Source: Candidatus Abzuiibacterium crystallinum
GTDB lineage: Bacteria; Omnitrophota; Omnitrophia; Omnitrophales; Abzuiibacteriaceae
Direction of reading: 5' to 3'
Length of the DNA: 64,000 nt
Assembly: GCA_002787155.1 (NCBI GenBank)
Contig: PCVY01000023.1
Span: forward strand, 6,828-70,827
Shown: positions 14,387 through 64,000 of the stretch, piece after piece
Layout: every line of letters begins with the position of its first letter
How positions within the stretch are numbered: position 1 is the first letter of the stretch
Position numbers and translations under genes: made by a program
Notes under the pieces: model-generated
What the model saw: the letters and a program-made list of their open reading frames with translations, nothing else
What the model was told of the DNA's origin: nothing
Databases searched by the model: none

Positions 14387-14399
14387 TTTAGTAACTTAT

Positions 14400-14969: not shown

Positions 14970-15013
14970 CCCGTTAGAGACGCACGGGGTCTGACCCCAG
15001 GAGTACTACTAAA

Positions 15014-20366: not shown

Positions 20367-20389
20367 GCGCGCGCGAGAGGAGAACGGCG

Positions 20390-34700: not shown

Positions 34701-37700
34701 AATTGAGCCATCCAGCGAGGATGCGCTTCACGCTCACACTTCATTGAGGGCGGTGTTAGAACGATTGATAGAGGAAGTCTCTCAAGATGAGCTTGTTTCT
34801 ATAATCCCTGTTTTACATACAACACTTGAACAAATTCACGGAACGAGCAGTCAAGCCAATATGGCCAGAGTAACCATTACACGAATATTGGAAAAACTCT
34901 CGAAAAAGGTTCCTCTCCCTGCGTTGGCCAGTATTCAGAATGCCTTACTTTTAGCGCTCAAATTGACCGAAGGTTCAGATATTGATACAAGTCACACCAG
35001 AAATAACATAGCTCATTGCTTGGCTTTGGTCACACTGCGTTATTATCAGGTTATTCATTTGACTGATAATAGGTTACCCTTCATCAGTTTAGAAAAACTT
35101 TTGTCAATGGTAAGTTCCGGTCCGGATCGTATTTCACTTTTTCCTATTTATGGGGATCTTGAAGTGATTGGTCAAATCCTGCAATCTCAAGACCAGACAA
35201 ACATGATACAACAACTGAATGCTTACCGGGAACAATTGATGGCACAGTATCAAAGGGAACAGAGATCAGGGATCAGGGGACAGGGAACAGGGAACAGCTT
35301 GCCGGATCATGATCCGCTTTGGACAGCGGGGGTTGCCGGCGGCGTGAATGCGGGAGCAGGAGCTGACCGAGCAGAATTAAGAAACAAAAACTATTCCCAA
35401 ATGACAGCAGACGAACTGCTGCAAGCGCTCAAGTCTGTTCAAGGGACGAATGAAGCGTCGACGGATACTAGACGAGCTCTTTCAAATGCGCTGAATGCTG
35501 CTTTCAGAAGAATGAATCAAGAAGAACTACCCGCCATTTTTCAGGACTCGCTCGCCGCGATCAAAGAAATTGGTGAAAGTGATGAGCGCACTCAAGCTAG
35601 AGATTGGATTGCCATGCCACTCTTTGCCCTCATCCAAAAGATTGACGAGGATCAGCTTGCTTTCGTCTTTGAAAATCTGATAGCTGTTCTAAGAGAAATA
35701 AAAGGATCGAGTCATGCGGCGATTCAAGTACGATTCAGCATCATACAAAATTTAATCTTGATTGTGCACCGCCGTCATCATCGATCTTACACAAGCCCCG
35801 GGGATAAACTCGCTCAGGCGCTTCACGTCCTTTTCTCAGCTGCTTCTTCAAAAGTCTGGGTTTTTGAAACGTATGGCAGTTTACATGCGTTGGATCAAAT
35901 CTTTGAATCCAAAGATGACAAAACAATCATTGCAAAACTGAGCGCTTACAGGGAACAATTAATCGCACTGTCTCTAAGGGAAGAAGCGCCGCGGGTCAAG
36001 GGTCAAGAGCAGCAAGACACGGGCGGCGGATCAGGGGACACGGATCAAAATGATTCCATCTGGGCAGCCACTGTCTTGGGGCCTGCGAATGTGAGCGCCT
36101 CTATCAAAATTCATTCATCACGGTCTGAATTACGCATGAAACGCCGTTTGGATCCTTTAGATCAACTCTTGAATGATCTTAAGTCACTCAAAGGTTCGGG
36201 TGATACCACAAACGGCATCAGGGCAGATCTTGCGGATGCCCTGACAACATTGGGCAGAAAATTAACCGAATCTCAATTATTTCTTATCGTTGATCCCATC
36301 ATTACACAATTAGAACAAATTGAAGGATCACGATATACGGCCAATCGGGCAAAACTGGCCATTACCTCATTCATTAATATGGCAGCATCGCGCCTTTCGC
36401 CTACTCAACTGGGCGGTTTGGTTAAGCCATTATTTAACCAAATTGTGTTCAAACGTGAACTGGAAGAATTGACTTCAAACATACCAGTTTCATTTGGCGA
36501 CAGTTTGCTGGAAGTTGTCAGAGAAATCGATCAAACCCAATTACAGGAAGTGGCACGTTTACTGTTTGATTATTTAACAAATCTTCCGGATGACTTGGAA
36601 TACACAAATCTAAGTCTACGTTCTATTTGCCGGGCTTTGACAATGGTATTTAAACGTATCGATACCTTCCCATGGTCGGAAGCAGTTGCTGCGTTTAAAA
36701 CATTACACAGAAACACTGAGCAGACCCGAACATTCTACCCAGCCTTTCCATGGATTTCAGATGTTTTAGCCATGGCGCTCCTCAGAATGCACCAGATTGA
36801 AATTGAAAAAGGGAGGGACAGCCTTTTTTCTGCGCTTTCCCGTCTTTTGGAGTTTCATAAGGACGACACGGTTCTTTTTCTGCGTCATGGAGATTTTAAC
36901 GAAGTTAATTCCATCCTCCAGTCTCACGCGGATCGTTCTACCAAAACCGCGCAACTCAATCATTACCGCGAACAATTACTGGCCTTACATCAAAGGGAAC
37001 AGGGAGCAGGGAGCAGGGAACAGGGAACTCCGCCACACAGCGTCGGGCGGATCCGTCCTCCGGCGGAAGGGATCAGGTCACAGGATACGGATCACGAACT
37101 CTGGCTCAGCGGACCGGTGGGGGCAGGAGCAGTTGGTGTTGGCGCAGCAGTGTTGAATACCAAATCGGAGCTCCGAACTCATGGAGATGATGAATATGAT
37201 GTCATGGGTTTTGAGTCAAAATATTGGAAAATGGATTTAAACGAGTTACTCGATGAACTTTGGTTCATCTTATGGTTCAACGAAGAAGGGTGGGGAAAAA
37301 GTTTTGATAGGAACACCATTATTGAAATTACCGATCATATTCAAAGGAAAAGTAAGGAAGCCGATCAAGATGAACTTGTTCCTGCCGCCCGGCGGCTTTT
37401 TGATGCTTTGGAAAAAACGGTGAAGTATTTCAATCGTGACACGGCGGCACCGCACTTGGCGGTTGCCAGAGCGCTTGCGGCCGTTCATTGGAAGATTCAT
37501 GGTTTCAATACTTCGGAATGGTCAAACGAGTTATTTTTGACGCTCGAAGATATTTTTGTAATTGCCATCGGTGAGAAATCACTTTTCTTAAGTTACAGCA
37601 GCCCGGCTGCCATTAAGCAAATTCTTGAGCTCAAAGATCAAAATGCCATGATTTACCAACTCAAAGCGCTGCGCGAACAAATTCTTGCCGCCTATCAAAG

Positions 37701-40700
37701 AGAACAGGGAACAGGGGACTCCGCCGCACATCGTCGGGCGGATCCGTCCTCCGGCGGAAGGGAGCAGGAACCGCGGGACACGGGATCACATGAGCCTCTT
37801 TGGACTGCAGGGGTAGGCGCCGGCGTTCTGCTATCGGCCAAATCAGAATTACGCGTGCAATTTTTTCAGATTGCTTTAACAAAGCTCGTTGACTTTGCAA
37901 GACAAAACGCATCTCTTTTCTTTCGATATGTCATCAACCGTCAGAAGGTTGTTGAGCGGGATGATGACGATTATGAAAAAATGAGTACCGATGAACTATT
38001 AGACGACCTTCAATTTATTCACCTGGCTTATGCTTTTCGCCATGTCCCGCCTCAGCGCAGGTGGGATATTTCACTTTCGCTTGGGTGGCGCGTGCAAAAA
38101 ATGACAAAACCCGAACTTCTCGACTTTTCAAGAAAACTTCTCACTATCTTAACAACCACAAAAGGTTCTAGTGAAAACGCACATCAAATAAGAAGTGCCG
38201 CTGCCGGAGTCTTTAAGGAAGTGGTTAGAATTATTCCAGATACCGAATTATTAGCTATCTTTAAGGCGCTTTTTTCAGCATTAAAAATAACGCACCAGTC
38301 GCTTAGCGTTGCCTTTAGTCACGCCGCCAGGATTGAAGAGCGTGCAATCACAGACACTTTTGAAATAATACGTAAAAGAATGCCTAAAGCTGATTTTTCG
38401 CAAGTGGTTGACGAATACTTGGCAGTGTTGGAAGAAATAAAGAATCGAAAATTTCTTTTCTGGGAAAAAACAATACAACACCAAACTCTCCATTTAATGG
38501 GGGAAGCAGTCTATTCCTTTCCGGAAGCTCAACTGAGGCGAACGGCTAAAGAATTGATCGCTATTTTACGAGCTCTCAAGGACCAGGGCGGAAATGTGAA
38601 CGAAATTCGAATTTTATTACTTTATGTTTTTCGGAACATCGTCGAGCGTTTACCCGAAGCTGATCTGGGCGGCTATGTGACTGAATTACTCTCAACGTTT
38701 GATGCTATCAAAGGATCGAACGAACACGCTGGAGAAGCAAAAGGAGACATAGGTCATATTTTGTCGAAAGCAGCTGAACGGATGCCGCCCTCAGAACTAC
38801 CTCATTTTGCGGATGAAGCATTGATCAGGCTAGAGTCAACGCCAAATCGGGGAAATCAAGCTTATCAGACAACGCGAGCGATGGCGGAGGCTCTTTGGGG
38901 TTTTGCAAAGGCAGTTGATCCCGAAAAGGCGGATCCGCAAAAGATGTCTAAAATCATGAATCTACTTCTTGAAAAATTAAAGCTGATCAAAGGAAAAGGT
39001 GACAATGAGGAGTGGGCCAAAATACATATCTTGCTCGCTTTAGGAGCCATAGCTAAAAAAATCCCACATCAAGAGCTTCCCGGGCTTTCCAATGCAATTC
39101 TTTCAGAGTTAACGCATTATGAGTTTAATGACGGACTCAAAGGCCGTTTAATTGATGTGCTGATAGCAATTGCAGACAGCATTGATCTTGCTGAGCTGCC
39201 AAAGATATCAAACGAGCTTCTGGATGTTTTAAAAGAGATGGGAGAATTAAATGATGACGAAGATGGAGGGTATCAAACACTCGTCACTATAGCTGTATTT
39301 TTTGAACAGATCACACCCAAAATCTCAGAAACAGAACTCCCTCGTATTTCAAAAGCATTTCTCACTGCACTCGCCGCCATCAAAGGATCTAGTTACAATC
39401 TAGACCGTGTGAGAAGGTTTGTCGGAGACGTGCTGGCTTTGATATCACTGAGGATCAATCACTTACCATTGGATAATAAGCCATTAATTGAACAGCTTCA
39501 AAAGTTCTTCTCGCTTGCTCCGGCTAGTCATTCACTTTTTCCGATGTACGGCGACCTAAATGAAATTGGGCATATTTTAAAGCTTGAAGATCACAAGCAA
39601 GTAATAGCCCAACTCAATGCCTACCAGGCACAATTACTGGCACGGTATCAAAGGGAACAGGGAACTCCGCCACACAGCGTCGGGCGGATCCGTCCTCCGG
39701 CGGAAGGGAACAGGGAACAGGGGACGGGGATCAGGTCACAAGACACGGATCACGATCTCTGGCTCAGCGGACCGGTAGGGGCGGGTATCCGGGCAGAATT
39801 AAGAAACAAAGACTATTCCAAAATGACGATCGATGAATTGTTACAGGCACTTCAAATGGGAAGGTCTGATCAAGAAGCTCAGGAACTTAAAATTGGAATT
39901 GCCAAAGTTTTAAAAGAATCAGCTAAAACCATGCAACCAACGGAACTTCAGCATCTTTCTAATAGGCTCCTTTTACTGCTAGAGGCAGCACCGGCAAAGG
40001 GGAGGGCGGGCCGGCAAACCATTCAAGCAGTTGCAGATATTTATCAAGTGATTGCGATGAAAATTGACCCTGCCGAATTGCCTAAGATTTTAGAGGCACT
40101 GCTTACCGCCTCAAAACTACCGCTCAAATATGACGTTGACGGCAGAGATGCTAAAAGGTTCATTACGATTGCATTGACAAAAGTTGCTGAACGAATCCCA
40201 GAAGAAAAACTTCCTACCATATTAAATTATGCGCTTCTTGAATTAAGCCATTATGATTTGGATGATCAATTAACATACAGTTTAATTTTTGTGCTCGATG
40301 CAGTTGCTAACCGAATCCAACCAACCGAACTGCCAAGAATTTTGCATGCCTTACTCGATAAGCTTAAAACAATCAAATCATTAGATGATAAAGATGAAGA
40401 GGATCTCATTTGGCAGGTAGTGATGATAGCAGCATTTACCTTTAAATCGATTGCCGCCAGAATGAGCGCAACGGAACTACCGGCCATTTCGAAAAGACTT
40501 CTCGAAATACGCTCGCTTGCCAAAAGAGATAGCACTCAGGCGGAAAAAACAAGAGACGCTCTCTTAGCGCCTTTTCCTGCCATTGCTGCCCGTATAGACA
40601 AAAAAGAATTACCTAACTTATTTGATCAATTTGTTGACATTTTGAAAAATACACACCGAACAGACGCATCGCCGGGATCAAGTTCTAACATGAGATTGCG

Positions 40701-58700: not shown

Positions 58701-61700
58701 TCATGCGCTGATCGGCATGCGGACCGAGGAGGCACATCAACAACGTGCATCACTTTTGGTGCAGCTTAAAAATGAAGTGTCTTATGCAAGCCTCAGTGAA
58801 CTGACAGTCATCATTTCTGTTCTCTTCGATTTAATAAAGGCATATGAAGATTCAAGCCAAAGCGAGCAGGCGCTGATCCGGTCGATTTTCAAAAAGGTGA
58901 TTAAACGTCTTGATCAAACAGAACTGCTCCATCTGAGCCAACGCTTGTTAGGTGTTTTCCAATCGATGGATAGTTCCGAATATTTGGCGCATCAAGCCCG
59001 AGAATCGTTGGTAAAAGCTTTTATTGCGGTCACGCAAAACATTGATTACTCAGCTTTTCCGCGCGTGATTGAAATCATGCTTAATTTTGCGCAATCACGT
59101 GAGCTGCAATATGATATCGGCGGCACACGTGGGGAGCCGGCAAGGTTAAGATTTGAGTTGGCACCCGCTCTCGCGGCTATGGTGAAGCGTGTTCCGCGAA
59201 ATAAGCGTCTTCAAACCATTCAATTTTTGCTTGATCATCTTCGTTTGATGGCTCAAACGTACGAAACCGTGAATATGGGTTCAGAGATCGTCCGGTATTC
59301 GTTGAATGAGATAACAGAGCAAATGGATTCCCGCGCGTTGCTTGATCTGACTCAATTATTATGGCGCACATTGGAATTACTGGAAGATTCAAGCAGGTCT
59401 GCCTTTGATGTGAAGTTTAGGATTCTTTATGTTTTGGATGATGTGATAGGGAAAGAGGCCGAAGTAAACTCTAGCCGTTTGACGGAAGACTGGCGTCACA
59501 GGATTGATCAATTGATATCGTATTTACGTCGGACACCTAATCACAAGAGAGATACATTTGATATCAGATGGATGGTCAGACGGATTTTAATGACCATTAC
59601 CTCAAAACTTGAGGGGCCTAGACTTAACGATGCTGTTGCCGGGCTTTTAGATCAACTGGAGTCTATCCATGACTCTGATGATGTCAGTAACGGCGCCAGG
59701 CAGGTGATAGCGGATGTTTTGGCTAAAGCCGTTCATGGTTATGATAAGGCGTTATTGTCTCGTGCGGCATCCGTGCTTTTTGAAACGTCAAAATTAATTG
59801 TCACGCAAAATCAAGAAGCCAATCAAGCAAAAGCCGCATATGGAAAAGTATTAGTGGAAATTGTTTTACGGCTGGATGAATCCGCATTGTCTGCCCTGGT
59901 AGCGCCTCTCGGGCAATTACTCGATTCCGTTATCCCTATACACAAAGATAGAGTGATTCAGTACGAGAGAGATTCGCTTGGCGCAGCTTTATCAATTGTT
60001 ATTTTGCGATTACACCAGATTAATTTTCATTATGTAAGAGATCCCAGCGCTTATCCAGATCCCAATGATTATATTGATTTTTTACAATATAACATCGCAA
60101 TGCTATTTAACCTCTATATCGAAGACCCTTCTTTTTCCGCGCAGACTAAATGGGATGCCATTGAGCAATTCACTCGAGATGTTATGGGTGACGATCAAGT
60201 GCTTCCGGAAGCAAAGCGCGAGGCCCTGATGGGAAAAATTGGCACATACCGTGAACAGTTGGATGCTGCTTACAAAAGGCATCAGTCCGAGGAAGGCGGC
60301 AGCCAAGACACCGGCCCTGAAGTCCAGGATGAACCGGGCGATTCGCTTTGGTTGGCACGTGCTTCTACCGGAAAGTCAGAACTCAGGGAGGATGCGCTAA
60401 GTCGGATGACAGAGAATCAGTTATTTGATGCATTAATATCCATATCATTTCATGACGACACAACCATTTTTCATCGTTATGCAGGTCCTTTGATATGGGA
60501 ATTGGCCGCAAGGGTAAGGCGTATTAAGAACCCGCTTAGTCAGGAGGTTTTGCTTCAGATGGTGCCAAAACTCCTGGAAGTTTACTTGAGGCATAAAGTT
60601 GTTGAGGAATGGCTTGATCAATTAAGGCAGGAAATCGATCATACACTCAGCGACATTGCCAAACGGTTAAAAAATCAAGAACGTACAGAAATGTTGAAGA
60701 TGATTTTGGATTTCTTGTATTCATTCCCAGGCGCCGGGGTTGAGCTGAATCGCGTCCGGGTAACTGCGGGAGACGTTTTGCGGGAAATCGCAAGAGGCAC
60801 TGATGCCGAAGAACTGCCTGATTTATTAAATTCGGTTTTATCCATTTATCAAGCAATCAAAGGATCAGACAGAGATGCCAATCAAGCCAGATGGAGAATG
60901 GGAAGTGCGTTAAAAGAAATCGCTAAACGTATTGATTCATCCCAATTACTTCCCTTGGTTACACCTCTTTTGGATTCTCTTTCACTGATGGCAGATCCAA
61001 GAGACCCGTCAAGCGCGTACGCAAATACGGCATACCGCACTGTTGCCAATATTTTAAGAACCATCGTGAAACGCATAGATCCCCATCAACTGCCTGAAAT
61101 AAAAGCGCCGCTTTTAGGTGCGCTGACGCATATACAAGGCGACACCGAAGCTGCGCGTTTTGCACGGGGTGATATTAGCAGATTGCTTGCGGAACATTAT
61201 TTACGCTCACATGGATTAGCCTTAAGCGGACGCGGGGGTAATTTACTCAAAGCTTTTGCGGATGTTTTTGCGGCCGCATCACCGGACGGAATATCGGTAT
61301 TTCCTCTCTATGGTGATCAAAAAGAAATTGATCGTCTTTTTCAAAGTGCCGCAGACAAAAATGGCCGCATAGCACCTCAAATGCGTCAGCAACTCATTTC
61401 ACAACTTCAAACTTACCAAGAACAATTAATCGCCGCGTATCAAAGGGATCAGAGATCAGGGAACAGGGATCAGGGGACAGGGAACAGGTCACAAGACACG
61501 GGAACAGATGAGACGCTTTGGGCGGCGGGGGTTGCCGGCAGCGTGAGTGCGGGAGCCATCGCGTCCGCGGCCCGCAGTGAACCATCGACTCGCAGCGAAC
61601 TGCGCTCAAAAGATTATTTCCATCAGGCAACAGAGAACTTGCTGCGCGAATTGGCCGCGCTTCAAGGGTCTAGCGATGATGTCAATCAACGCAGGAAATG

Positions 61701-64000
61701 GATGGCGGATGCGCTGGACGGAGAGGTTATTAAGAGAGTACAGTCTTCGATGCTTCCCGTGTTTTTATATCCGCTCCTCCGCCAGCTTGATGCGATTGAA
61801 AACGCCGGTGTATTAGCCAACCAAGCCAGAGCATCTCTTGGGAATCATTTGGTAACCATCGCCGTCTATGTTGATGCCGGTCATTTACCGGCCATGTCAG
61901 GAGTTACGATGAAAGCTTTGGCGCGAATTCAGGGGGATGATCCCGCAGCTAATAATGCCAGAGGCGTGATGACATCGATTTTAAGACAAGTTACAAGACG
62001 CATCGAACCGCATGAACTGCTTCAAATCAAAGGGGCGTTTCTCGCAGAACTCGCAAAACCTCTGGGCAATGGTCAAGAAGCACGCTATGTAAGGTGGGGT
62101 ATTTTTTATTCATTAGAAGAGCTTGCTAAACGGATTGACACGGCAGAACTGCCGCACTTAACGGCCGTGATGCTGAATGAACTAGTGAATACGGCTGAGC
62201 GAACGGATGATACTGCCAATGAAACCAAGCAATCGGTCGGAAGGGTTTTAAAAGAAATTGCTCATCGTATTGATTCTGATGCCCTGCCCGGTCTGATAGC
62301 GCCTGTCGTGGCGGCGTTGGATGGTGTCACAGACCTCAGCAAATCTGCCTACGAAGTTCAAAGCTCTCTCACATCGGCGTTGACAGCAATCGCAAATCGT
62401 GTGCATGAACGGGAACTTCCCCAACTGATTCCGCCGCTTCTTGGGACATTAAAAAAGATTTCGGAAGCAAAAGGCGAAGATGAAAAAAAGGCGGCTGATG
62501 ATGTGAGACTGCACGCGGCGGTTGCCGTCCAGGCAGTGTCTCGGCGTGTTGCTGATGTTCGTGAGATTGATCTGCTTGCTGCGTCCATGACGGATGAACT
62601 TGCGAAATTCAAAGACCCGAATCATTCAACGTTAGCCACACTAAGAGCGGTTGCAGAAGCGCTTGCCGTTATTTATATGAGGCTTCACGATCTTTCATTA
62701 AAAAATGAACCGTTATTTCACGCCCTCAGAGATCTTTTGAAAGTGGAATATGTAGTTGACGCAAAGCTCTTTCCCGCTTATGGAAGCTTGGAAAATGTTA
62801 AACAGATCCTCCAACACGCAGATCCGGCACGGATGACTGCCCAATTGAACGCTTACCGCAAACAATTAATCGCTGAGTATCAAAGAGATCAGGGAACAGG
62901 GATCAGGGATCAGGTGTCGGGGGATGGGGATCAGGGGACGGGGAACAGGTCAAAAGACACGAGAACAAATGAAACCCTTTGGACGGCGGGGGTTACCGGC
63001 GGTGTGAGTGCGGGAGCGGAGATTACAGGAAGAAGTGAAATGCGGAAAAAAGTAGACAGCACTGCCGGTTCTCGCTCCGAACCCCACTTGAGTCCAACCG
63101 ACTCAAGTGCTGTCCGTCCCGAAAAGCCAACCGCTTTTCGAGCGGAACTGCGAACCAAAGATTATTCCCGCATGAGCGTTGATGAATTGTTAAATGAACT
63201 TCAGTCAATCAAAGGATCAACTGATGATGCCAATTGGGCAAGACGAGTCATTACCGATGTCTTCACAGAAATATCAAAAAGAATTGATGAAACCGAACTT
63301 CCCGCTATTTCACAAGCGTTGTTGATCACTTTAAAAGAAATCAAAGGATCAACTATTTATGCCAATATTTATGCCAATTGGGCAAGACGGGCCATTGCCG
63401 ATGCCCTCGGAGAAATATCAAAAAGAATTGCTGAAACCGAACTTCCCGCTCTTTCACAAGCCTTGTTGATTGCTTTAAAAGAAATCAAAGGATCAACTTT
63501 TGATGCCCATCCGGCAAGACGGGCCATTGCTGATGCCTTCCGAGAAATATCAAAAAGAATTGATGAAACCGAACTTCCCGCTATTTCACAAGCCTTGTTG
63601 ATCGCTTTAAAAGAAATCGAAGGATCAACTGATGATGCCAAGCATATGAGATGGGTCATTGTCGATGCCCTCAGAGAAATATCAAAAAGAATTGATGAAA
63701 CTGAACTCATCGCTATTTCACAAGCCTTGTTGGCAGCTTTGAAGAAAATCAAAGGATCAACAACTGATGATTATGCTCATGGTGCAAGAGAGGCTATTGG
63801 CAAAACCCTAGCTGTTATTGTGTTGCGATATCATCAAATCCCTATTTCAGATGAGAGAAATGATTTATTGAGCGCTCTTCAAGATGTCTTTACACTTGAA
63901 ATGAACGGTGTTTCCATCTATCCCATAGAAAACCATCATCCATTGAATAACCCAAACAATTCCATTCATCAAATCTTTAAACAACATGGCCAAAACCACG
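31702..64000 (+). CDS. Giant modular protein, 3' end outside the window (at least 10,766 codons visible): signal/anchor, N-terminal domain, many ARM/HEAT-like repeat cassettes, central hexa-AAA+ (midasin/dynein/MoxR type), HExxH segment, VWA(MIDAS), then more cassettes
   Basis: Frame +1 has a TAA at 31696-31698, an ATG at 31702, and then no stop that I found. I hand-translated about 40 separate 60-nt rows between 31.7 and 64.0 kb. All read sensibly in frame +1 (position mod 3 = 1), for example 35401 MTADELLQALK, 44851 GVTSGGKSTT, 53536 DESGS, 63961 SIHQIFKQHGQNH. The ORF track lists no frame +1 ORF of 60 aa or more here, which is what a single ORF with no stop codon in the window would give. 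All listed + ORFs in this span are frame 2, and the rest are antisense. Confidence 0.9.
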   Translation, partial: MFIPKNIQRAIAFFLAISFSLSNGPTLLLAETYPGSSLPYHASSVNPNAILDSLKLPGELGIVQEVYSAVPGTTVPGSQNPAPAVPGTGIGFKVNQLVILVQNAHANYDSESNVRKIIQFFQEHYQLGLVLLEGGEGKLDPLFFKSFPDGKIKEKLLDQYLKHGDLQGGEAAAILNHSNNPTSYWGIEDETLYQQNKAAFLKAIVQTDQILKQLTQKEAALEENIASLPESSQTFYKAWQAFHADEMNLLEYVKTLAEHTSGTGSVDSVIPARLWRESTVIGALVRSFPELAKLLEVEKGEQALQKSEIDMTVNQLLKEFQSTALPALSVESQKEWGQRIQDYQTGRLGVGFLIKQLESFLTIPDVLKPAIQHAQTISSVRGTEIFHELEHLENAVRDQLPGRERLHQVNELHLLKRFARLEITHEEWKVIASAAKQSQDQGLLRSFHSLAMTEMLKNHFTFYQLALKRDGILSGRILEIMRRESQKVSLVVTGGFHESGIKERLRANGTAYVLISPAIQEVGSNEAYLNAMHDKRSFMKYFQGSYWDALAKDYMQQSSAAAGPQEEKFIFKQWRDQLIQNTLQEGRITQATRYTRYLDSFLQTEGKPADDKVGRKTQLEGAFESFLSTYFKQHQADLNAKLDHFAAGFKNMLTQGTFTQGAVEALLRQTQVLQTAQLAPDLALIPAWNQFHLSEATIETLPDINQPLWLEHKQKSELRSEEVDSDYWYAYGEEFLILMEEVGYRIDETDLEGDITLEVETVSDDRFPKDFSKLAKSVPESDLTRLRDTYIHILKNAIGKSRTLEEIVEGLSTLILRQAGIRLNDRKLIEAITDILLTYKEKGVTGPTLQLRHVYLFPRYGDVNEIIQLLANHRGKRGTLSQTQRQLIAQQLENMKEQWQANYERAQAEKTEEPKVDGQPKTGESLWLEGQPKPELRNAKDYTQMSVKELLVELQSTRSQSSQVNFKILRITSELEQRSEKMLDSEIVATINALLSALMLIEPSSEDALHAHTSLRAVLERLIEEVSQDELVSIIPVLHTTLEQIHGTSSQANMARVTITRILEKLSKKVPLPALASIQNALLLALKLTEGSDIDTSHTRNNIAHCLALVTLRYYQVIHLTDNRLPFISLEKLLSMVSSGPDRISLFPIYGDLEVIGQILQSQDQTNMIQQLNAYREQLMAQYQREQRSGIRGQGTGNSLPDHDPLWTAGVAGGVNAGAGADRAELRNKNYSQMTADELLQALKSVQGTNEASTDTRRALSNALNAAFRRMNQEELPAIFQDSLAAIKEIGESDERTQARDWIAMPLFALIQKIDEDQLAFVFENLIAVLREIKGSSHAAIQVRFSIIQNLILIVHRRHHRSYTSPGDKLAQALHVLFSAASSKVWVFETYGSLHALDQIFESKDDKTIIAKLSAYREQLIALSLREEAPRVKGQEQQDTGGGSGDTDQNDSIWAATVLGPANVSASIKIHSSRSELRMKRRLDPLDQLLNDLKSLKGSGDTTNGIRADLADALTTLGRKLTESQLFLIVDPIITQLEQIEGSRYTANRAKLAITSFINMAASRLSPTQLGGLVKPLFNQIVFKRELEELTSNIPVSFGDSLLEVVREIDQTQLQEVARLLFDYLTNLPDDLEYTNLSLRSICRALTMVFKRIDTFPWSEAVAAFKTLHRNTEQTRTFYPAFPWISDVLAMALLRMHQIEIEKGRDSLFSALSRLLEFHKDDTVLFLRHGDFNEVNSILQSHADRSTKTAQLNHYREQLLALHQREQGAGSREQGTPPHSVGRIRPPAEGIRSQDTDHELWLSGPVGAGAVGVGAAVLNTKSELRTHGDDEYDVMGFESKYWKMDLNELLDELWFILWFNEEGWGKSFDRNTIIEITDHIQRKSKEADQDELVPAARRLFDALEKTVKYFNRDTAAPHLAVARALAAVHWKIHGFNTSEWSNELFLTLEDIFVIAIGEKSLFLSYSSPAAIKQILELKDQNAMIYQLKALREQILAAYQREQGTGDSAAHRRADPSSGGREQEPRDTGSHEPLWTAGVGAGVLLSAKSELRVQFFQIALTKLVDFARQNASLFFRYVINRQKVVERDDDDYEKMSTDELLDDLQFIHLAYAFRHVPPQRRWDISLSLGWRVQKMTKPELLDFSRKLLTILTTTKGSSENAHQIRSAAAGVFKEVVRIIPDTELLAIFKALFSALKITHQSLSVAFSHAARIEERAITDTFEIIRKRMPKADFSQVVDEYLAVLEEIKNRKFLFWEKTIQHQTLHLMGEAVYSFPEAQLRRTAKELIAILRALKDQGGNVNEIRILLLYVFRNIVERLPEADLGGYVTELLSTFDAIKGSNEHAGEAKGDIGHILSKAAERMPPSELPHFADEALIRLESTPNRGNQAYQTTRAMAEALWGFAKAVDPEKADPQKMSKIMNLLLEKLKLIKGKGDNEEWAKIHILLALGAIAKKIPHQELPGLSNAILSELTHYEFNDGLKGRLIDVLIAIADSIDLAELPKISNELLDVLKEMGELNDDEDGGYQTLVTIAVFFEQITPKISETELPRISKAFLTALAAIKGSSYNLDRVRRFVGDVLALISLRINHLPLDNKPLIEQLQKFFSLAPASHSLFPMYGDLNEIGHILKLEDHKQVIAQLNAYQAQLLARYQREQGTPPHSVGRIRPPAEGNREQGTGIRSQDTDHDLWLSGPVGAGIRAELRNKDYSKMTIDELLQALQMGRSDQEAQELKIGIAKVLKESAKTMQPTELQHLSNRLLLLLEAAPAKGRAGRQTIQAVADIYQVIAMKIDPAELPKILEALLTASKLPLKYDVDGRDAKRFITIALTKVAERIPEEKLPTILNYALLELSHYDLDDQLTYSLIFVLDAVANRIQPTELPRILHALLDKLKTIKSLDDKDEEDLIWQVVMIAAFTFKSIAARMSATELPAISKRLLEIRSLAKRDSTQAEKTRDALLAPFPAIAARIDKKELPNLFDQFVDILKNTHRTDASPGSSSNMRLRSRKVLAIIFLRNHQLPLDDETLAKALENLLGIHSPTDSLFPIYGEFSEIDRILRLPGREQMIAQLTIYRKQLIAQSQRDQGTGNREQGTGDGEQGTGIRSQDTESNDTLWVISPAVERSELRTKDYSRMSVDELLNELQSIKGSTIDVNWAREAIADTLTEILKRIDPTKLPAISQALLTALKEIKGFADDANRTRWAITFSFPEILQRIDPTELPAISQALLITLKEIKGLSNATNEARRTITFSFPEILQRIDPTELPAISQALLIALKEIEGSTDAANQARWVIADAFREMPKRIDKSELPAISQTLLAALKEIKGSTIGANQAREAIGKTLAVIVFRHHQIPVTDETNDLLSALQDVFTLEMNGVSIYPIENHHPLNNPDNPIHQIFKQHDQDYAQIMSQLNRYREQLSAQHQRDQGTGNREQGTGIRSQDTDHDLWLSGPVGVGAGLTKAGRQSADHDKRVELRNESPNLEDLSPTDEAREVEVVIKAIHALTDSVWKQPLPRLNTRSNAGAELASLVNQCVHLIRDTKMTVNEQIQLVKAFLHLLESFESLYLKTLVGSASHLQLHWLLRHVMTAIPFGQITPIRHEIYLSQEIARRQGPSRNTTLHIDFLSEILIMLALKQAGFKGTWDTLAVDKIYNTNVWKELGDFYSGTVRVRREGIGFLHQYADDAEINKIINIWLDDSGNLDHTRAEQVITQLKLYIDQLLHQIKIKANEEPGTDDAEQSADSRPEDIWLRGSFRPQGGLGPSKSELRTAKSKSDLGKRLTQLAKDLEAEVEARQIKGLAKQLLENKSTRTKTDAQIESEIKEKAADDAAMDRLIAHLKIARALKEAGNDFLRDYEQTHYLKLAKIQQPNAVLWGLRFLDLDDIQDPEIRRLMGKLQSLLMVNEFFGRSSAAFVESVLTEFIVNTVIGDDFGMTELLTSLDPNQNLIELFQDWGVNVQLKYSREHTGIQALYDIARLYSKVFPEFNNNARTGFITHDFKEMLREPEGDADRNQQARALARGGAAQALNLLTIRLLGLPAGRTMEQQWQELFKITEKGIPNLQKPEHLNGARAEDILAGLAEISKTSQGQLKEVVAELIQGRFKLLVNHDVERFKQIGIIIGFTGIDGFAKIPFGRLREKYHLTEGSEEEGRLLKIVAQISRTAREGTGGLIEEVFDLYSQEAGEHLDDLNKLLQAFSYFVRLVNFHHDYERLVLEGDIGKVNNEALFVSLRDLKRTLDIVKKNDAKGMDIRDAIASAVKRRYYNRLSIEDRGIVRDLMARHRLIHENDLLDFDYVIDGFKNGSSRIRIYRKRKSGPARFKRTEVKPGEYKMELIQESVGKPELLLEIPLAQPLANVDPKIILNETTRRNLANILDALEVEEGKRFNPVLEFGVTSGGKSTTAALVAKILGVGFTRIQINERTDEFDLFGSFQPYEINITLEEAIQLLQEALATNNYNGLEDVFSRLKSDQTGQFWENYFNAQERQTIELGKDSRYPQRSVLERQRAAIRDKLKQLADKQLELAQSLKSLSAQERRLIDSKTDNPVWQAQLAQLRREEAEGFDQLNRIKSIAFMLNHEVGLRYKEGRFLTAYKRGDLILLDEVNLANEEMLGVLYQLLTLGYLEYNGKVIEPPLGKQARILATANPSGYAGRRRMSEAFMNRFEIIHVDEMTDEEMRDIVVGQMMKDLIASGRYTAGDFEQNSDEAPEVWDKKINKILQEEYGITRESTRLLAGVQRKFNSILATGSFPRMGSDSNYVFTLRNLQRIAGDVKERKENGERITLETWIREAYGEYAGVLMRPSTQPSYTAERLKPDESLPAEHHLWDDPDYKTIRRVFTTFMGELIAGESHQSYDDAFDELIRRHFETIPYVYDSTAHAIKLDGLLTQGAEPNDQNPIEPLIEVGSTKMVQRQILKGIRRNIPTLLVGQSGGGKTEIIGDLVNRLGRQYISVSLGDATLESLIGTMEYNRMEKRFVYRRGVLVKAMEEGSVLVLEELNMAKSGILEILNEYFDDGTFTNPFTLKQVAVHRDFRLFATMNPIQGETGENLGRVSLSPALRNRFREIWVPHKKTDAEMNEILIGKFKQLGVEKIEKATGAKIIGFFRAYEEAFKDQADPVYYTSLRDLNRIAKIMAYLINELDMHESDALARAIDRVYRLRMQNSGALAVVDQILIELKIKIPGAGQLSYQSRNGVLEVRDGQTLVAKLDLSLIQAKLRDRIRGELSADTDPAELEALTEKRLKTLLDEAVLVENPRTKAHLLDLMEAVTLPSGEVKKGKFNPIFLLGETAGGKSSLTKYLALHLLGQNYTRIQFNERTDEFDLFGAYEPRELHMGLDRAFRIVQNAMEQGEWVKIKKALKLWQTGALTEDDLSELEMIEKVEERIRTVDLEASQQITKILKDASEEDVLGDPGQKREAERKLKTIAFLIENNMLNVELEFREGRLLQAIRRGDVVVLDEMNLANEEALAVLYQLLTLGYVEYYHKDTRQVERITPAPGFKLMATANPASYAGRHRLSEALMNRFEIHYVMNMTPQEMTEILRGENSHEPVFERDQSFQTTVEKLTLLQENINEALRNGQFPEVSSDQVQGYLFTLRNLKRVLRNTAELLRQGDSSPPSESLIRQAYLEYLGVLGRSDASIKTLQSLFKAPKQFPQFNPDFRISFESMTMPNGQSGILAGGFKVVRRFYEDEAEGVSHDADVIEELEEGATTNLIRQAIAKGLLDSRMAVLLVGQSGGGKTEMIGDLARRLGWRYRSVSLGNATLESLVGGYAMDHETKKFRYIPGILIQAMREGAILVLEEMNMAPSGLLEILNEYFDESTFTNPMTGQKEKIHPNFRLFATMNPEKGVTSTSEGRVGLSPALRSRFSEVWVPHIRTQAETERIIRKKFSNRGVSHVPPKVTEDIYRVYDQYRRFVEEGKIGQESNEGYYVGLRDVVKIIDLVAQDQSRGIPMEEALRFAFKRIFYLRLNSDADRKTVQEEILKTYDMSKTEYQWKSVNDHWVVKRTQWQTAEVPKALLKEKGFILTPQSQEELALLLEAMQRGVTIQGKAAARSFNPMMLFGETSGGKSTLVEIAASIFRTPFTRIQMNQRTDEYDLLGSYHPVEVKLTFEQAYEVVQSVIRQNQTLRTAQVLRALHITDDHVKSVLRINPDQTMPLEQLQKRFLEEHVLANARQGNPKSIEQMKDIGALLLNGVAGIELIFREGMLLQAMGDRETGRPGQVVLLDEFNLANEEAIGILYQLLTLGYIEFQGRKIFPGKGFQLIVSGNPSRYSGRRRMSEAFMNRFEILNRPSMTKEEMVKILTEKYALEASGISKSGIEALVDLQFDIEETAQSIGFDFFNQDNTYRFSLRNLERIVQDLKKRMEVEPERSVQVMLREEAYLEYAGLLSQSTDEDDPKKNNLKVLAGLFKKHFNWEIDPETVLPEFKKQTLVKGEDEWISLNGVRVRKLSPHQMLESLQLELNEEIRSGALADDDGGKLVLLTEANLVRILAQVEKRLASHDPLSRKEIMREEARTEYLKMLGESPRLVKRLDELINQHFYTQAERIEPLVELKSTRLVRMQILKGFRDGGVIRSRDTEGREVLNHRSQPVLLVGQSGGGKTEEIADAARELNRPYISVALGAATIESLIGSFVLNSETGTFEFRKGIMVRAMEEGSALTLEELNMAESSIIEVLNEYFDRGTMTIQERNVPIRIHPNFRLFATMNPTEGRTGRNAGRIPLSPALRSRFREVWVRNERNKGEQYRLMLGGIHALVSSLITRGLPEDRPDELENLELDWTRRRLAETAGQQVQFASSESLSAALKAGPSITLPRHDSSAIRMAKASEDGTPKEKPTSKEWERMAINERKRIYEEQFRIVSHGIMNIMSSDEAIELGLSRDGSHHWAYAPSINTLIYNSREIMTLSLDALIGVGVHESMHRYGTRYTSLFADFLDAQSLAGSFFNILEDGRIENWARYRFRGVERPLRTLNDEIIFDFEDDNEMVERMIKTSKDGKDIGHAGAIGNFFLYLAKRGSDPGAGKVIEKFLKAFEERDPALKEDIENLMQAGYFGGARDEDIIDAARQRKAQGVFSAIPVSPDDVGVYRVDPNPSEETILQLAIHQGILIRDFIMPVVYKWAVLQAEGEGSGKSGSGGAPGRGKIVIRPGKPGEESTPISPREWKKIWDSLSENDKKKILDTLDDLKKKAQDRTAKDSIDHKNAAIDAEITEPKSERDRLMSQMGKMIHELAGYLRDLIQNTIRPKEITGLKKGRIDVRRLMNAMARGFTDMRFYKQRIIPDKKDIKFTLIIDESGSMAGMGESGKGPEDNAAAKGYRTLMGAALLMEVLETLGIDFAVRGYGDDTFLHKRFKGQRIELSDQRAHFPPVPDGYATRKEKDTLIDDLYGSIGNHGGNNEGPALQAAIRDILKAGGEKHFVIVITDAMGDTKAIQEILDEVRAKKGMIGSTQTEFIAIGLGNDTESVPEVYGSEHGFWLHDDEVHKLPSEIKKLLQNVIRGVYAPGSGTPSRFSQFGKRMTDSASMAGAAGVGASTASASSAARSHSELRADDLESKVRKIIIRLARSQGDGLSAEQEHTDMLRRLGVLANRRSPEEVFEIVIEMMADETVGFSRKENAIRRAIMEAFLKELTPSAVLTSSAINELQDLMHTLAREAHSPEAQAEIDVIKSRIKELRLKLIMRQEVFTYAKITQLLSLDPSETVDLFLESLLSGDYSSGVDRKRMASNFGNLISNLNGELLLQTTEQIIEAIRTDPRAHIDPYENLEKYGSKIAYERHSILLEGLLVAVKKVDRSILQSIVDCMVQDLQYERSKKLKAEILAIALLRQENIITTNPSQEEKSLINALVNLPGRSTFQTSDLKEITLMLQHAKPKRGRLSSQAIKVLREQIKNFDEQIRARATRAQNENEQRSEDNLLPPDTESELWLENPRAELRTENDGSRRVDQLLKELQSIQGSSDEANRIRRDIGRALKKTVEENAIIDPSHAAQVLISTLHQIKGSNAGAYKAKEAIGWALAEVAKKIETTELPKISQAFISVLEAIEGSSAAATNLRLNAAWMLDGTAQRIDLTELPAIFQALISALGQLRGSDAGTRNGRTDFGFVLTDIVFRYHQLAPYLESSESELHSAMRNLMTMLSFSDDVPLFPRYGDWDTLHQIFEMGDSKKIIQNLKKFREQIFAQYQREQRSGDREQGTRDRLQDTGTNETLWTAGVAGSVSAGAFVPAARSELRTKNYFRTAVDKLLRKLRSMRVHRLLRELKGLIGNTTSDAHWARLDIAGALIRISKKTDSTDLPAVTQALFLVLSTTERSSSLGLEEERRLGVFRALREISKRIDSAELSAILHALFSVLRETKGSFVSAAYERRAIANIFIEISRRIDQTELPAMMQGLLSVLLEVFEDSGSADHDAIEAVAGVLNEISKRIDQANLLNFTQALLLALSEIKGSNQDASTARTKIAIVLREISKSIADTELPTVTQALLKALNESEGFDTYASDARAQIAVALEEILKRIDETELPAVAQALISISNKFKSLGYSFWPNSTIQEALAVIVFRHHQMPVTDETNDLLSALQDVFTLEMNGVSIYPIENHHPLNNPDNPIHQIFKQHGQDHAQIMSQLNRYREQLSAQHQREQRSGDRGQGTGNSLPDQDSLWAAGVGLGTFLFTARNELRNGWLAERGHYLVHRFVHMVYGIRIKFRKKDHITERVLALINELKSLKGSGPDVVQSITDLATSLVENLKHIDQKDLPYVLDVLLSTLKQIKGSDDRATDARVWITTVLGTMVDRLDKKERTKLVKEFLSISRQMKGTMVNNIFVWTNILQTFAAMLAYLDDHERPLIIEELVTALKDIEDPTGNADLIRKNISETLSIFFFHRHGYPDLENKDPLFVALKKLFGATQNAVSLFPRYGDLTEVDRILQLEDREKIISQLNAYREQLMAQYQRDQRSGNRDQVSGDGGQGSGNRSQDMNDDLWLVGLAGAAAVHRTELRGVESLFRQLINLVRSALGRKQPAGSLKTKLHALIGMRTEEAHQQRASLLVQLKNEVSYASLSELTVIISVLFDLIKAYEDSSQSEQALIRSIFKKVIKRLDQTELLHLSQRLLGVFQSMDSSEYLAHQARESLVKAFIAVTQNIDYSAFPRVIEIMLNFAQSRELQYDIGGTRGEPARLRFELAPALAAMVKRVPRNKRLQTIQFLLDHLRLMAQTYETVNMGSEIVRYSLNEITEQMDSRALLDLTQLLWRTLELLEDSSRSAFDVKFRILYVLDDVIGKEAEVNSSRLTEDWRHRIDQLISYLRRTPNHKRDTFDIRWMVRRILMTITSKLEGPRLNDAVAGLLDQLESIHDSDDVSNGARQVIADVLAKAVHGYDKALLSRAASVLFETSKLIVTQNQEANQAKAAYGKVLVEIVLRLDESALSALVAPLGQLLDSVIPIHKDRVIQYERDSLGAALSIVILRLHQINFHYVRDPSAYPDPNDYIDFLQYNIAMLFNLYIEDPSFSAQTKWDAIEQFTRDVMGDDQVLPEAKREALMGKIGTYREQLDAAYKRHQSEEGGSQDTGPEVQDEPGDSLWLARASTGKSELREDALSRMTENQLFDALISISFHDDTTIFHRYAGPLIWELAARVRRIKNPLSQEVLLQMVPKLLEVYLRHKVVEEWLDQLRQEIDHTLSDIAKRLKNQERTEMLKMILDFLYSFPGAGVELNRVRVTAGDVLREIARGTDAEELPDLLNSVLSIYQAIKGSDRDANQARWRMGSALKEIAKRIDSSQLLPLVTPLLDSLSLMADPRDPSSAYANTAYRTVANILRTIVKRIDPHQLPEIKAPLLGALTHIQGDTEAARFARGDISRLLAEHYLRSHGLALSGRGGNLLKAFADVFAAASPDGISVFPLYGDQKEIDRLFQSAADKNGRIAPQMRQQLISQLQTYQEQLIAAYQRDQRSGNRDQGTGNRSQDTGTDETLWAAGVAGSVSAGAIASAARSEPSTRSELRSKDYFHQATENLLRELAALQGSSDDVNQRRKWMADALDGEVIKRVQSSMLPVFLYPLLRQLDAIENAGVLANQARASLGNHLVTIAVYVDAGHLPAMSGVTMKALARIQGDDPAANNARGVMTSILRQVTRRIEPHELLQIKGAFLAELAKPLGNGQEARYVRWGIFYSLEELAKRIDTAELPHLTAVMLNELVNTAERTDDTANETKQSVGRVLKEIAHRIDSDALPGLIAPVVAALDGVTDLSKSAYEVQSSLTSALTAIANRVHERELPQLIPPLLGTLKKISEAKGEDEKKAADDVRLHAAVAVQAVSRRVADVREIDLLAASMTDELAKFKDPNHSTLATLRAVAEALAVIYMRLHDLSLKNEPLFHALRDLLKVEYVVDAKLFPAYGSLENVKQILQHADPARMTAQLNAYRKQLIAEYQRDQGTGIRDQVSGDGDQGTGNRSKDTRTNETLWTAGVTGGVSAGAEITGRSEMRKKVDSTAGSRSEPHLSPTDSSAVRPEKPTAFRAELRTKDYSRMSVDELLNELQSIKGSTDDANWARRVITDVFTEISKRIDETELPAISQALLITLKEIKGSTIYANIYANWARRAIADALGEISKRIAETELPALSQALLIALKEIKGSTFDAHPARRAIADAFREISKRIDETELPAISQALLIALKEIEGSTDDAKHMRWVIVDALREISKRIDETELIAISQALLAALKKIKGSTTDDYAHGAREAIGKTLAVIVLRYHQIPISDERNDLLSALQDVFTLEMNGVSIYPIENHHPLNNPNNSIHQIFKQHGQNH
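32989..33059. mobile_element. MITE-like palindrome embedded in frame in the giant ORF
   Basis: GTCATTGCGAG (32989-32999) / CTCGCAATGAC (33049-33059), with inner GAAGCAATC (33006-33014) / GATTGCTTC (33026-33034). It is the same family as the intergenic copy at 11504-11585. It is translated as VIASAAKQSQDQGLLRSFHSLAMT. Confidence 0.7.
37029..37067. repeat. GC-rich motif, copy 1 in the giant gene
   Basis: TCCGCCACACAGCGTCGGGCGGATCCGTCCTCCGGCGGA. The core lies at 37046-37067 and is read as (G)RIRPPAE, shifted by one nucleotide relative to the 19037 copy. Confidence 0.8.
37720..37758. repeat. GC-rich motif, copy 2 in the giant gene
   Basis: TCCGCCGCACATCGTCGGGCGGATCCGTCCTCCGGCGGA, with the core at 37737-37758. 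Confidence 0.8.
39666..39704. repeat. GC-rich motif, copy 3 in the giant gene
   Basis: TCCGCCACACAGCGTCGGGCGGATCCGTCCTCCGGCGGA is identical to copy 1 over 39 nt. Confidence 0.8.
40939..40994 (+). repeat. Heptanucleotide microsatellite (CAGGGAA)4 plus two degenerate 14-mers, coding for an inter-cassette linker
   Basis: There are four perfect CAGGGAA units (40939-40966), then CAGGGGACGGGGAA and CAGGGGACGGGGAT. The translation cycles through all three phases (QGTGNREQGTG...). Confidence 0.85.
41120..41710 (+). repeat. Tandem 132-bp (44-aa) ARM/HEAT-like coding repeats, ~5 units
   Basis: TGCAAAGAATTGATCCAACCGAACTCCCCGCTATTTCACAAGC recurs at 41321 and 41453, exactly 132 nt apart. The unit consensus is a.R.aIa.a..EI.KRID.TELPAISQALL.ALKEIKGS. 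Confidence 0.85.
41959..41993 (+). repeat. Heptanucleotide microsatellite (CAGGGAA)3 plus one 14-mer, a paralogous linker
   Basis: There are three perfect units (41959-41979), then CAGGGGACGGGGAT. The flanks match the 40939 tract but the unit count differs. Confidence 0.85.
44770..45740 (+). other. AAA+ module 1 (type A, AAA_5/dynein-midasin-MoxR type) of the giant protein
   Basis: Walker A GVTSGGKST (44851-44877). It has RIQINERTDEFDLFGSF and Walker B LILLDEVNLA (DE at 45475-45480). It also has ATANPSGYAGRRRMSEAFMNRFEIIHV. Confidence 0.85.
46390..46960 (+). other. AAA+ module 2 (type B)
   Basis: Walker A GQSGGGKTE (46453-46479). The Walker B-like motif VLVLEELNMA has EE at 46654-46659. It has FRLFATMNP...GRVSLSPALRNRFREIWV. 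Confidence 0.85.
47500..48300 (+). other. AAA+ module 3 (type A)
   Basis: Walker A GETAGGKSS (47527-47553). It has RIQFNERTDEFDLFGAY and Walker B VVVLDEMNLA (DE at 48040-48045). It also has ATANPASYAGRHRLSEALMNRFEIHYV. Confidence 0.85.
48790..49330 (+). other. AAA+ module 4 (type B)
   Basis: Walker A GQSGGGKTE (48865-48891). The motif ILVLEEMNMA has EE at 49066-49071. It has FRLFATMNP...GRVGLSPALRSRFSEVWV. Confidence 0.85.
49780..50590 (+). other. AAA+ module 5 (type A)
   Basis: Walker A GETSGGKST (49855-49881). It has RIQMNQRTDEYDLLGSY and Walker B VVLLDEFNLA (DE at 50347-50352). It also has SGNPSRYSGRRRMSEAFMNRFEILN. Confidence 0.85.
51350..51900 (+). other. AAA+ module 6 (type B)
   Basis: Walker A GQSGGGKTE (51457-51483). 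The motif ALTLEELNMA has EE at 51658-51663. It has FRLFATMNP...GRIPLSPALRSRFREVWV. Confidence 0.85.
52300..52570 (+). other. HExxH zincin-like segment of the giant protein
   Basis: LIGVGVHESMHRYGT carries HESMH at 52414-52428. NILEDGRIENW follows ~25 residues later. The pattern resembles the putative metallopeptidase module found N-terminal to some VWA-like domains (DUF2201_N type, from memory). Confidence 0.5.
53500..54130 (+). other. von Willebrand factor A domain with a MIDAS motif
   Basis: KDIKFTLIIDESGSMAG carries the DxSxS motif DESGS at 53536-53550. Later it has GGNNEGPALQAAI and FVIVITDAMGD, which fit the remaining MIDAS-loop positions. Confidence 0.8.
56440..57240 (+). repeat. Array of ~44-46-aa ARM/HEAT-like coding repeats (~6 units, more diverged)
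   Basis: The pattern ...ISK(R/K)ID..(E/D)L(P/S)A..QAL...L.E.KGS... recurs through this span. The antisense ORF 56988..57236 is its shadow. Confidence 0.7.
63190..63800 (+). repeat. Tandem ~132-bp (44-aa) ARM/HEAT-like coding repeats, ~5 units; paralogous to 41120-41710
   Basis: GAAATATCAAAAAGAATTGATGAAACCGAACTTCCCGCTATTTCACAAGCC recurs with few changes. The antisense ORF 63369..63752 is its shadow. Confidence 0.85.

Follow-up and report, generated by a model that had tools for sequence, protein, structure and literature searches.

The window analysed here is a stretch of 64,000 nucleotides (nt) from the uncultured Omnitrophota bacterium Candidatus Abzuiibacterium crystallinum (contig PCVY01000023.1), and it holds a giant open reading frame in which helical cassettes are joined by short linkers. 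Eleven of these linkers are built from tandem 7-nt units of the CAGGGAA type. We hypothesize, with a probability of roughly 0.7, that these heptamer tracts are disordered linkers that were generated by slippage and homogenised by recombination, with selection keeping the reading frame. Under this hypothesis, replication slippage would create arrays in a linker with little constraint on its amino-acid sequence, gene conversion (short-patch recombination within the gene) would spread and homogenise these arrays among junctions, and purifying selection on the 32-kb frame would remove any change that is not a multiple of three units, unless a second change restores the frame. The role of a tract would then be that of a flexible, hydrophilic spacer and not of a dedicated genetic switch. 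According to an earlier survey cited in PMC4679880, heptanucleotides outnumber every other class of longer simple repeat (units of 5-11 nt) in most of the prokaryotic genomes that it covered. An initial annotation of this DNA had offered two options, simple linker evolution and a contingency mechanism producing truncated variants, and the first of these fits the evidence best.

Heptamer tracts and their reading frame

The host gene is a single + strand frame that opens at 31699 (ATG at 31702) and is unclosed at 64000, giving more than 10,766 codons and more than 32.3 kb, in agreement with the open reading frame of over 32 kb described in the initial annotation. Inspection of the units confirmed that all 11 annotated sites carry heptamers of the CAGGGAA, CAGGGGA, CAGGGAT or CAGAGAT type. 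Tandem Repeats Finder likewise reports period-7 arrays, with the consensus AGGGAAC or AGGGATC, at 35254, 36994, 37702, 39705, 40933, 41953, 56200, 57538, 58471, 61444 and 62887. The pattern CAGGGAACAGGGRA, allowing at most one mismatch, has 28 matches in the window, all on the + strand and all within the 11 linkers, where shuffled sequences lead one to expect 0.01. The gene and its heptamer-bearing linkers are as follows.

31702..64000, + strand: giant open reading frame, a single frame as seen here, passing the window end
35257..35316, + strand: linker 1 (EQRSGIRGQGTGNSLPDHDP), tract 35260-35294 of 5 units
36997..37098, + strand: linker 2, 4 units (37000-37027), a 39-nt block at 37028-37066 in phase 1 read as TPPHSVGRIRPPAEG, then AAGGGAT CAGGTCA
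37702..37797, + strand: linker 3, 2 units (37705-37718), the 39-nt block at 37719-37757 in phase 2 read as DSAAHRRADPSSGGRE, frame restored downstream
39655..39756, + strand: linker 4, 1 unit, the 39-nt block at 39665-39703 in phase 1, then 5 units at 39704-39738
40936..41025, + strand: linker 5, tract 40939-41001 of 9 units, four of which (4 x CAGGGAA) form the longest perfect run
41956..42018, + strand: linker 6, tract 41959-42000 of 6 units (3 x CAGGGAA), mosaic
56203..56271, + strand: linker 7, tract 56206-56247 of 6 units
57541..57600, + strand: linker 8, tract 57544-57578 of 5 units
58474..58557, + strand: linker 9, tract 58477-58539 of 9 degenerate units
61447..61515, + strand: linker 10, tract 61450-61491 of 6 units
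62887..62976, + strand: linker 11, tract 62890-62952 of 9 degenerate units

Every tract begins in codon phase 0, directly after a conserved Glu or Asp codon, and successive units are read in three phases to give Q-G-T-G-N-R-E and its variants. The phase-0 starts and the translation bear out the earlier description of a heptamer array read in all three phases as a QGTGNRE-like peptide. The tracts are heavily interrupted overall: only 2 of the 11 have three or more identical consecutive units, the longest identical run is four, and the site at 37700 has just two units. The annotated count of four perfect units at 40939 against three at 41959 is correct. After a gain or loss of one or two units, translation would reach a stop 16-84 codons past the tract start, so that such a change would indeed truncate the protein, as had been proposed.

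The 7-nt periodicity resides in the DNA and not in the peptide, because codon usage inside the tracts departs from that of the gene around them. Glycine is encoded by GGG or GGA at 45 of 45 positions (37% in the rest of the gene), glutamine by CAG at 24 of 24 (30%), and arginine by AGA or AGG at 23 of 23 (29%). Given its peptide, the codons of the tract at 40939-41001 have a log10 probability of -13. Selection on the QGTGNRE peptide itself was considered as a cause of the repeats and is ruled out by this codon usage, by a block of DNA read in two frames and by the absence of the peptide in relatives, both described below.

A related sequence lies outside the gene, where TTCCTGG is repeated 3.3 times at 20073-20095 (its complement, CCAGGAA, is near the linker unit). 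It is intergenic, just upstream of a small gene for which a faint MerR match is annotated in another assembly.

History of unit number

Paralogous linkers differ in unit number, as the initial annotation had noted. Counted up to a shared CAGGTCA, the simple linkers have either six units (41956, 56203, 61447) or nine (40936, 58474, 62887), and the linkers at 35257 and 57541 have five units plus CAGCTTG. The tracts at 40939 and 41959 differ by exactly three units, or 21 nt, up to CAGGTCA (the whole linkers differ by 27 nt in length), and both are in frame.

The most informative case is a 39-nt block, CTCCGCCRCACAKCGTCGGGCGGATCCGTCCTCCGGCGG, common to the linkers at 36997, 37702 and 39655. When the block is deleted in silico, the linkers at 36997 and 39655 become six-unit linkers, in which the block stood after unit 4 and after unit 1, respectively; the one arrangement has three units fewer on one side and three more on the other. 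In the linker at 37702 only two units precede the block. Its upstream part is thus 14 nt shorter, the block is read in phase 2 instead of phase 1, giving DSAAHRRADPSSGGRE and not TPPHSVGRIRPPAEG, and the frame is regained by a length difference farther downstream. Judged from this comparison of paralogous sequences, the block read in two frames directly demonstrates that a change other than a multiple of three units occurred in the past and was compensated downstream. The case also shows that the amino-acid sequence of the linker is, to all appearance, barely constrained. Historical slippage is demonstrated, including one compensated frameshift.

Mosaic linkers and probable recombination

The cassette bodies that flank the junctions have, with one exception, a background DNA identity of about 48-60%. 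The linker cores reach 93% (35257 and 57541), 86% (40936 and 62887) and 84% (56203 and 61447). For the first of these pairs the flanks are only about 50-57% identical, the cassettes being unrelated in DNA. The exact edges of similarity are equally telling: the 252 nt that precede the linker at 41956 are 95.6% identical to those that precede the linker at 57541, with the similarity stopping at the first tract base, and the 3' half of the tract at 41956 together with the sequence downstream of it equals that of 39655 exactly over 77 nt. Because similarity partners switch at the tract, we infer that short patches recombined within the gene (gene conversion), the breakpoints falling inside the arrays.

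One cassette tail (…IYPIENHHPLNNPDNPIHQIFKQH…) occurs in three copies, at 41600-41955, 57289-57540 and 63701-63988, with DNA identities of 95.6% and 87%. As the other copies of this tail each precede a linker, a twelfth heptamer tract probably begins shortly past the end of the window.

Junction architecture

At least 14 cassette boundaries share a common plan, …LFPxYGD…QLNAYREQLxAQYQR(E/D), then the linker, then (D/E)xLW…G/A-rich…SELR.KDYSxMxxDELL. Heptamer arrays are present in 11 of the 14 junction linkers that were aligned; the other three, which are comparable in length and composition, are listed here.

35980..36057, + strand: comparator linker without a CAGGGAA array, having only GGGTCAA x2 plus a shared CAAGACACGG piece
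42856..42918, + strand: comparator junction linker without a heptamer array
60280..60345, + strand: comparator junction linker without a heptamer array

At two further junctions (ELR motifs at 34501 and 55447) a heptamer-type peptide was not seen in the translation. When modelled by AlphaFold2 from the 14 paralogues, a junction has a helix up to …YQREQ, coil with a predicted local distance difference test (pLDDT) score below 50 over residues 65-107, and helices again after ELR. Since this low-scoring coil coincides with the linker residues, the tracts would sit in a predicted disordered spacer between helical cassettes.

The motif itself, present at every cassette boundary, is (D/E)xLW, a short G/A-rich stretch and (S/A)E(L/V/M)R, often followed by KDYSxMxxDELL, and its W, E and R are invariant across the 14 paralogues. 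ELR motifs start at 33847, 34501, 35371, 36124, 37165, 37843, 39793, 41056, about 42090 and 42970, and again at 54292, 55447, 56332, 57649, 58600, 60376, 61594 and 63034/63142. The junction after linker 11 (63055-63151) has an extra segment, …SRSEPHLSPTDSSAVRPEKPTAFRAELR, with imperfect inverted repeats of 26 nt at 73% and 19 nt at 74%; this segment brings in a second SE(L/M)R motif and is perhaps another small insertion. The motif LW…SELR could be a processing or docking site, and its G/A-rich stretch may explain some of the many transmembrane helices predicted in the giant Omnitrophota proteins known as Archaeovorins, which are discussed below.

Assemblies and relatives

Three near-identical assemblies of one population were compared, namely the window, GCA_002781965.1 and ERZ27293413. 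The first five tracts, which are those that can be compared, are identical in all three, and the only differences between the assemblies are at 26867 and within a 132-nt repeat. In ERZ27293413 the gene is called as an uninterrupted protein of 11,094 amino acids (aa) from the same start, implying that all the tracts are in frame there too. The stop of this call lies about 1 kb past the window end and 116 nt short of the end of contig k141_303988. The initial annotation had taken the differences among paralogous linkers as a sign of ongoing slippage, and the identity of the window with two independent assemblies of the same population at these five tracts does not support that claim. An assembly artefact is ruled out by the agreement of the three. 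Relative to the European Nucleotide Archive assembly (L001), the sole cluster of differences in the window is at 41364-41425, inside the first 132-nt array, which suggests that the register or copy number of the 132-nt repeat differs between assemblies.

A dimer of the unit was found in none of 48 related loci. Orthologous giant genes of other Omnitrophota (L010, L012-L015, L021) keep the (D/E)LW…[SA]E[LVM]R junction and have linkers rich in P, S, A, E and Q. A junction-profile scan of 1.84 billion representative proteins likewise returned true relatives (P0002-P0012) with linkers rich in K, A, E, P and S, in which QGTGNRE was not found. The boundary motif is kept in these giant proteins, some with a …SLG variant. 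Because the relatives keep the junction motif without the heptamer repeats, the CAGGGAA arrays are young and lineage-specific. A junction-profile search of genome contigs gave no relative, and neither did a search for homologous proteins with the junction alignment and with a 497-aa stretch holding the two most perfect tracts, in a collection that seems blind to this protein itself.

The unit is not confined to this gene. The junction-profile scan of proteins yielded, in addition, some 50 short predicted proteins of (REQGTGN)n from elsewhere, and a metagenome scan with the anchored tract pattern gave 16 loci, none related to the window by BLAST, which are heptamer arrays of other organisms. 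CAGGGAA thus expands as a microsatellite in other organisms too. Long CAGGGAA or GATCAGG arrays in unrelated metagenomic contigs (L056-L071) are apparently non-coding, and several are followed by an inverted heptamer array; metagenomic arrays of this kind often turn up, by a miscall, as short predicted proteins made of (REQGTGN)n or (GIRDQGS)n (P0011, P0014, P0016-P0031).

In a second Omnitrophota lineage (L013) the junction linkers hold different heptamers, GACGGAT and GCGCAAC, in frame and paired with inverted copies, which shows that junction linkers tolerate heptamer arrays. The hairpin elements at the L013 junctions lie at 14146-14300, 17290-17540, 19414-19520 and 20349-20386. The same element, GCGCAACGCACAACG…CGTTGACCGTTGCGCG, also lies in frame in a loop of the MiaB gene of a third genome (L012, 18956-19025), where it adds about 18 aa when compared with PDB 7mjv, and the fold z-scores of all these elements are -2.4 to -3.6. 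Together they look like an in-frame palindromic selfish element. The giant orthologue in L012 has three tandem cassettes at 13,000-15,300, spaced by 768 nt, which agree in every one of their final ~130 residues, linker and junction among them; the frame of this orthologue stops at 17764, with much less of it following the VWA region than in the window.

Alternative explanations

The second option of the initial annotation was a contingency locus, in which any of the 11 tracts could slip by one or two units, silence all that follows it and so give heritable, reversible truncated variants, as in neuO, the CUS-3 prophage O-acetyltransferase gene of E. coli K1. The attraction of this idea is that a 7-nt unit is indivisible by three and stands in phase inside a reading frame, that a frameshift would terminate translation within the 16-84 codons given above, and that a past change other than a multiple of three units was later compensated. 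There are precedents as well, since the (AAGACTC)n tract of neuO leaves the gene on only for unit numbers that are multiples of three (PMC13001214), and H. influenzae hmw1A has an intragenic (AATTTTG)14 with a frameshift (PMC2651432). However, working switches are built from far longer and more regular arrays. The neuO tracts have 3-53 units, most commonly 20, with 65.6% of genomes off and cultures visibly mixed for tract state (PMC13001214), and the functional heptanucleotide tracts in the hmw1A and hmw2A promoters of H. influenzae have 13-38 uninterrupted, strain-variable copies (PMC2651432). The known heptanucleotide cases span about 13-53 units, and the tracts of the window have 2-9 degenerate units with no more than four perfect ones; only 2 of the 11 reach even the permissive threshold of three uninterrupted units used for H. 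influenzae (PMC2651432). Moreover, all 11 tracts are in frame both here and in the independent assembly with the 11,094-aa call, the five comparable tracts are identical in three assemblies, the relatives lack the tracts altogether, and interruptions common to paralogous tracts point to decay rather than to upkeep of perfect repeats. The truncated products would also lack the AAA core and have no evident function. We therefore regard a contingency locus as improbable, the claim being unsupported rather than refuted. If the tracts were nonetheless unstable in populations, they would amount to a truncation switch with many sites, the first on record for a giant gene, but the present evidence makes this unlikely.

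Selection might instead act on the tracts as recombination joints, in-phase arrays being kept so that cassettes exchange, duplicate and delete in frame and so drive modular evolution. The shared codon phase at every tract start would suit such joints, as would the similarity partners that switch exactly at tracts, the exact shared strings of 24-77 nt that cross tract and flank, and the duplicated neighbours (the 132-nt arrays, and the near-identical tails before 41956, before 57541 and at 63701-63988). Yet breakpoints at microhomology are expected without selection, an in-frame outcome follows only from a register of a multiple of three units, and the relatives make similar multi-cassette proteins without arrays, so that we give this explanation little credence. 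A broader proposal, that the in-phase boundary arrays are a selected plasticity device combining reversible nested N-terminal truncations with in-frame shuffling, duplication and deletion of cassettes, is compatible with the data, because changes other than multiples of three units and breakpoints located in tracts have both happened; it strikes us as equally doubtful.

Two further explanations place the cause in the nucleic acid, and both appear highly unlikely. In the one, (GGGAACA)n would form G-quadruplexes in the mRNA or the non-template strand, for example to pause ribosomes while a cassette folds. The 64-kb window has 12 canonical G-quadruplex motifs, every one on the + strand and none on the - strand, against 0.3 expected from shuffles; 11 of them lie in linkers and one just downstream of the linker at 57541. 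These motifs, however, are an automatic outcome of a unit with GGG in it, they are missing from other junctions of this gene and from the junctions of related genes, and the L013 units have no GGG; Watson-Crick folding of the tracts is not significant either (z -1.3 to +0.6). In the other, the tracts would be relics of a mobile palindromic element, a heptamer array that inserted in frame in the manner of the L013 hairpins and the L012 MiaB element. The 39-nt block gives this some substance, as it behaves like a clean in-frame insertion into a six-unit array and contains the palindrome GGGCGGATCCGTCC, and the 12-mer ATCCGTCCTCCG is shared, in one and the same frame (IRPP), by the three block-bearing linkers and two L013 hairpins and by no other site in 71 loci. 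The L013 and L012 elements do fold significantly, and one such element sits in the MiaB loop as the insertion of about 18 aa. The shared 12-mer is nevertheless weak evidence, and an element of this kind would account for the 39-nt block at most and not for the arrays, which have no inverted partner, lie on one strand only and fold no better than shuffles. Apart from a 10-nt palindrome in the 39-nt block, no inverted repeats were found in the linkers, nor any minus-strand copies of the unit, and Rfam has no match in the window. The block alone may be a relic of a hairpin element.

Linker evolution by slippage and recombination, with selection on the frame, also has points against it. The nine-unit tract at 40939 and the six-unit tract at 41959 are most simply explained by one gain of a single unit and one gain of two units, an arrangement which hints that out-of-frame intermediates existed. 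Homogenisation by gene conversion is inferred from the pattern of similarity. The tracts may be unstable at the present day, the stability comparison being among assemblies of one population, and the G-rich sense-strand units in 11 tracts could reflect a selected property of the nucleic acid.

The heptamer linkers are of interest on three counts. They illustrate how low-complexity linkers come about and are replenished in a giant bacterial protein, they include an unambiguous example of a single block of DNA that is read in two frames, and, together with LW…SELR, the tracts mark the cassette boundaries of an Archaeovorin-like protein, which could help to dissect such proteins. The authors of the Archaeovorin study remark on missing information about cleavage points (bioRxiv 10.1101/2023.11.21.568195).

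The giant gene and its neighbours

The giant protein consists of an N-terminal region, helical cassettes, six AAA_5 ATPase modules, a probable VWA region and further cassettes. The AAA_5 match (Pfam, E 2.4e-108 over 8 stretches) covers modules at about 44,800-51,900; five of the six tandem modules have P-loops found by pattern and the sixth (GVTSGGKST) was recognised by reading the translation. The modules in the window are of two alternating types. At about 53,500-54,100 a VWA match is sub-threshold (20.5 bits against a cut-off of 23.8, E 6e-4), with a DESGSM motif visible in the translation, and a match to the Midasin AAA lid is sub-threshold as well (18.5 against 22.7). Six AAA_5 modules followed by the DESGSM and sub-threshold VWA region, at about 44,800-54,100, form a midasin-like layout in a bacterial giant protein. 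With a maximum E of 0.01 in the search of the first two-thirds of the protein, of 0.001 in that of the final third and of 0.1 in that of one cassette, Pfam had no match in the cassettes outside the AAA_5 and VWA regions, no HEAT match in the portion of the protein within the window, and no SecA match in the portion seen, the C-terminus lying beyond the window. By eye the cassettes are 44-aa helical repeats, and tandem arrays of 132-nt (44-aa) helical repeats (…ELPAISQALLxALKEIKGS…) occur at 41121-41686, 56895-57219 and 63227-63761.

Upstream of the giant gene lie genes for a TPR protein, a ParA-like ATPase, PilM/PilN, a secretin and a PEGA protein, and also for a phosphatidylserine decarboxylase, a CDP-alcohol phosphatidyltransferase and a LysE-type transporter. 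PIW65547.1, from assembly GCA_002781965.1 of a Candidatus Omnitrophica bacterium, matches residues 1-3,358 of the giant protein without a single difference, and the 90% cluster of this partial NCBI protein is a singleton. Among species-representative genomes, the nearest loci to the AAA region are from Omnitrophota, at 60-85% identity. On its sequence, the giant gene appears to belong with the Omnitrophota giant proteins called Archaeovorins and can be termed Archaeovorin-like.

Comparison with known systems

Archaeovorins are described as combining AAA_5 domains and HEAT repeats with a type II secretion-like cluster beside the gene (West-Roberts et al., bioRxiv 10.1101/2023.11.21.568195). The gene described here resembles them in its Omnitrophota host, its great length, its AAA_5 domains and helical repeat cassettes, and the adjoining cluster of type II secretion or type IV pilus character. 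It differs in that Archaeovorins are characterised by a length of at least 30,000 aa and by SecA DEAD-like domains, whereas at least 10,766 aa are present in the window and 11,094 aa are called in one assembly, and in that HEAT is the commonest domain there, while Pfam gives no HEAT or SecA here in the part seen. The terms linker, frameshift, slippage and heptanucleotide are absent from the Archaeovorin paper and from a 2026 preprint on Omnitrophota long proteins. The likeness to Midasin/Rea1 is in the six tandem AAA modules, although the C-terminal MIDAS/VWA domain is only sub-threshold in our protein.

Among repeats, Rickettsia palindromic elements are in-frame selfish insertions in protein-coding genes. 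Their likeness is to the in-frame hairpin repeats of L013 and L012 only, as the CAGGGAA tracts of the window are not palindromic. The heptamer direct repeats of Cyanobacteria and Beggiatoaceae (e.g. TAACTGA arrays) and the CAGGGAA arrays of metagenomes have the same 7-nt period, but they are mostly intergenic and often accompanied by an inverted array, whereas the window tracts are coding, short and in one orientation.

The closest parallels are phase-variable genes. In H. influenzae, too, heptanucleotide repeats are found at genes for large surface proteins, and the (AATTTTG)14 of hmw1A in strain PittAA lies deep in a 7.3-kb frame, with a frameshift (PMC2651432); the tracts of the window are much shorter and degenerate. 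With neuO they share an in-frame 7-nt unit, a reading in three phases, a 7-aa repeat and the rule that the frame holds only if the unit number is a multiple of three (PMC13001214). In neuO, however, there is one long, perfect 5' coding tract, polymorphic between genomes and within cultures, whereas here there are 11 short, interrupted tracts, all in frame and none polymorphic at the five compared in three assemblies. A coding microsatellite whose unit is not divisible by three is therefore a kind already known, as in neuO, and what is unusual is its setting, in 11 paralogous linkers of one giant gene.

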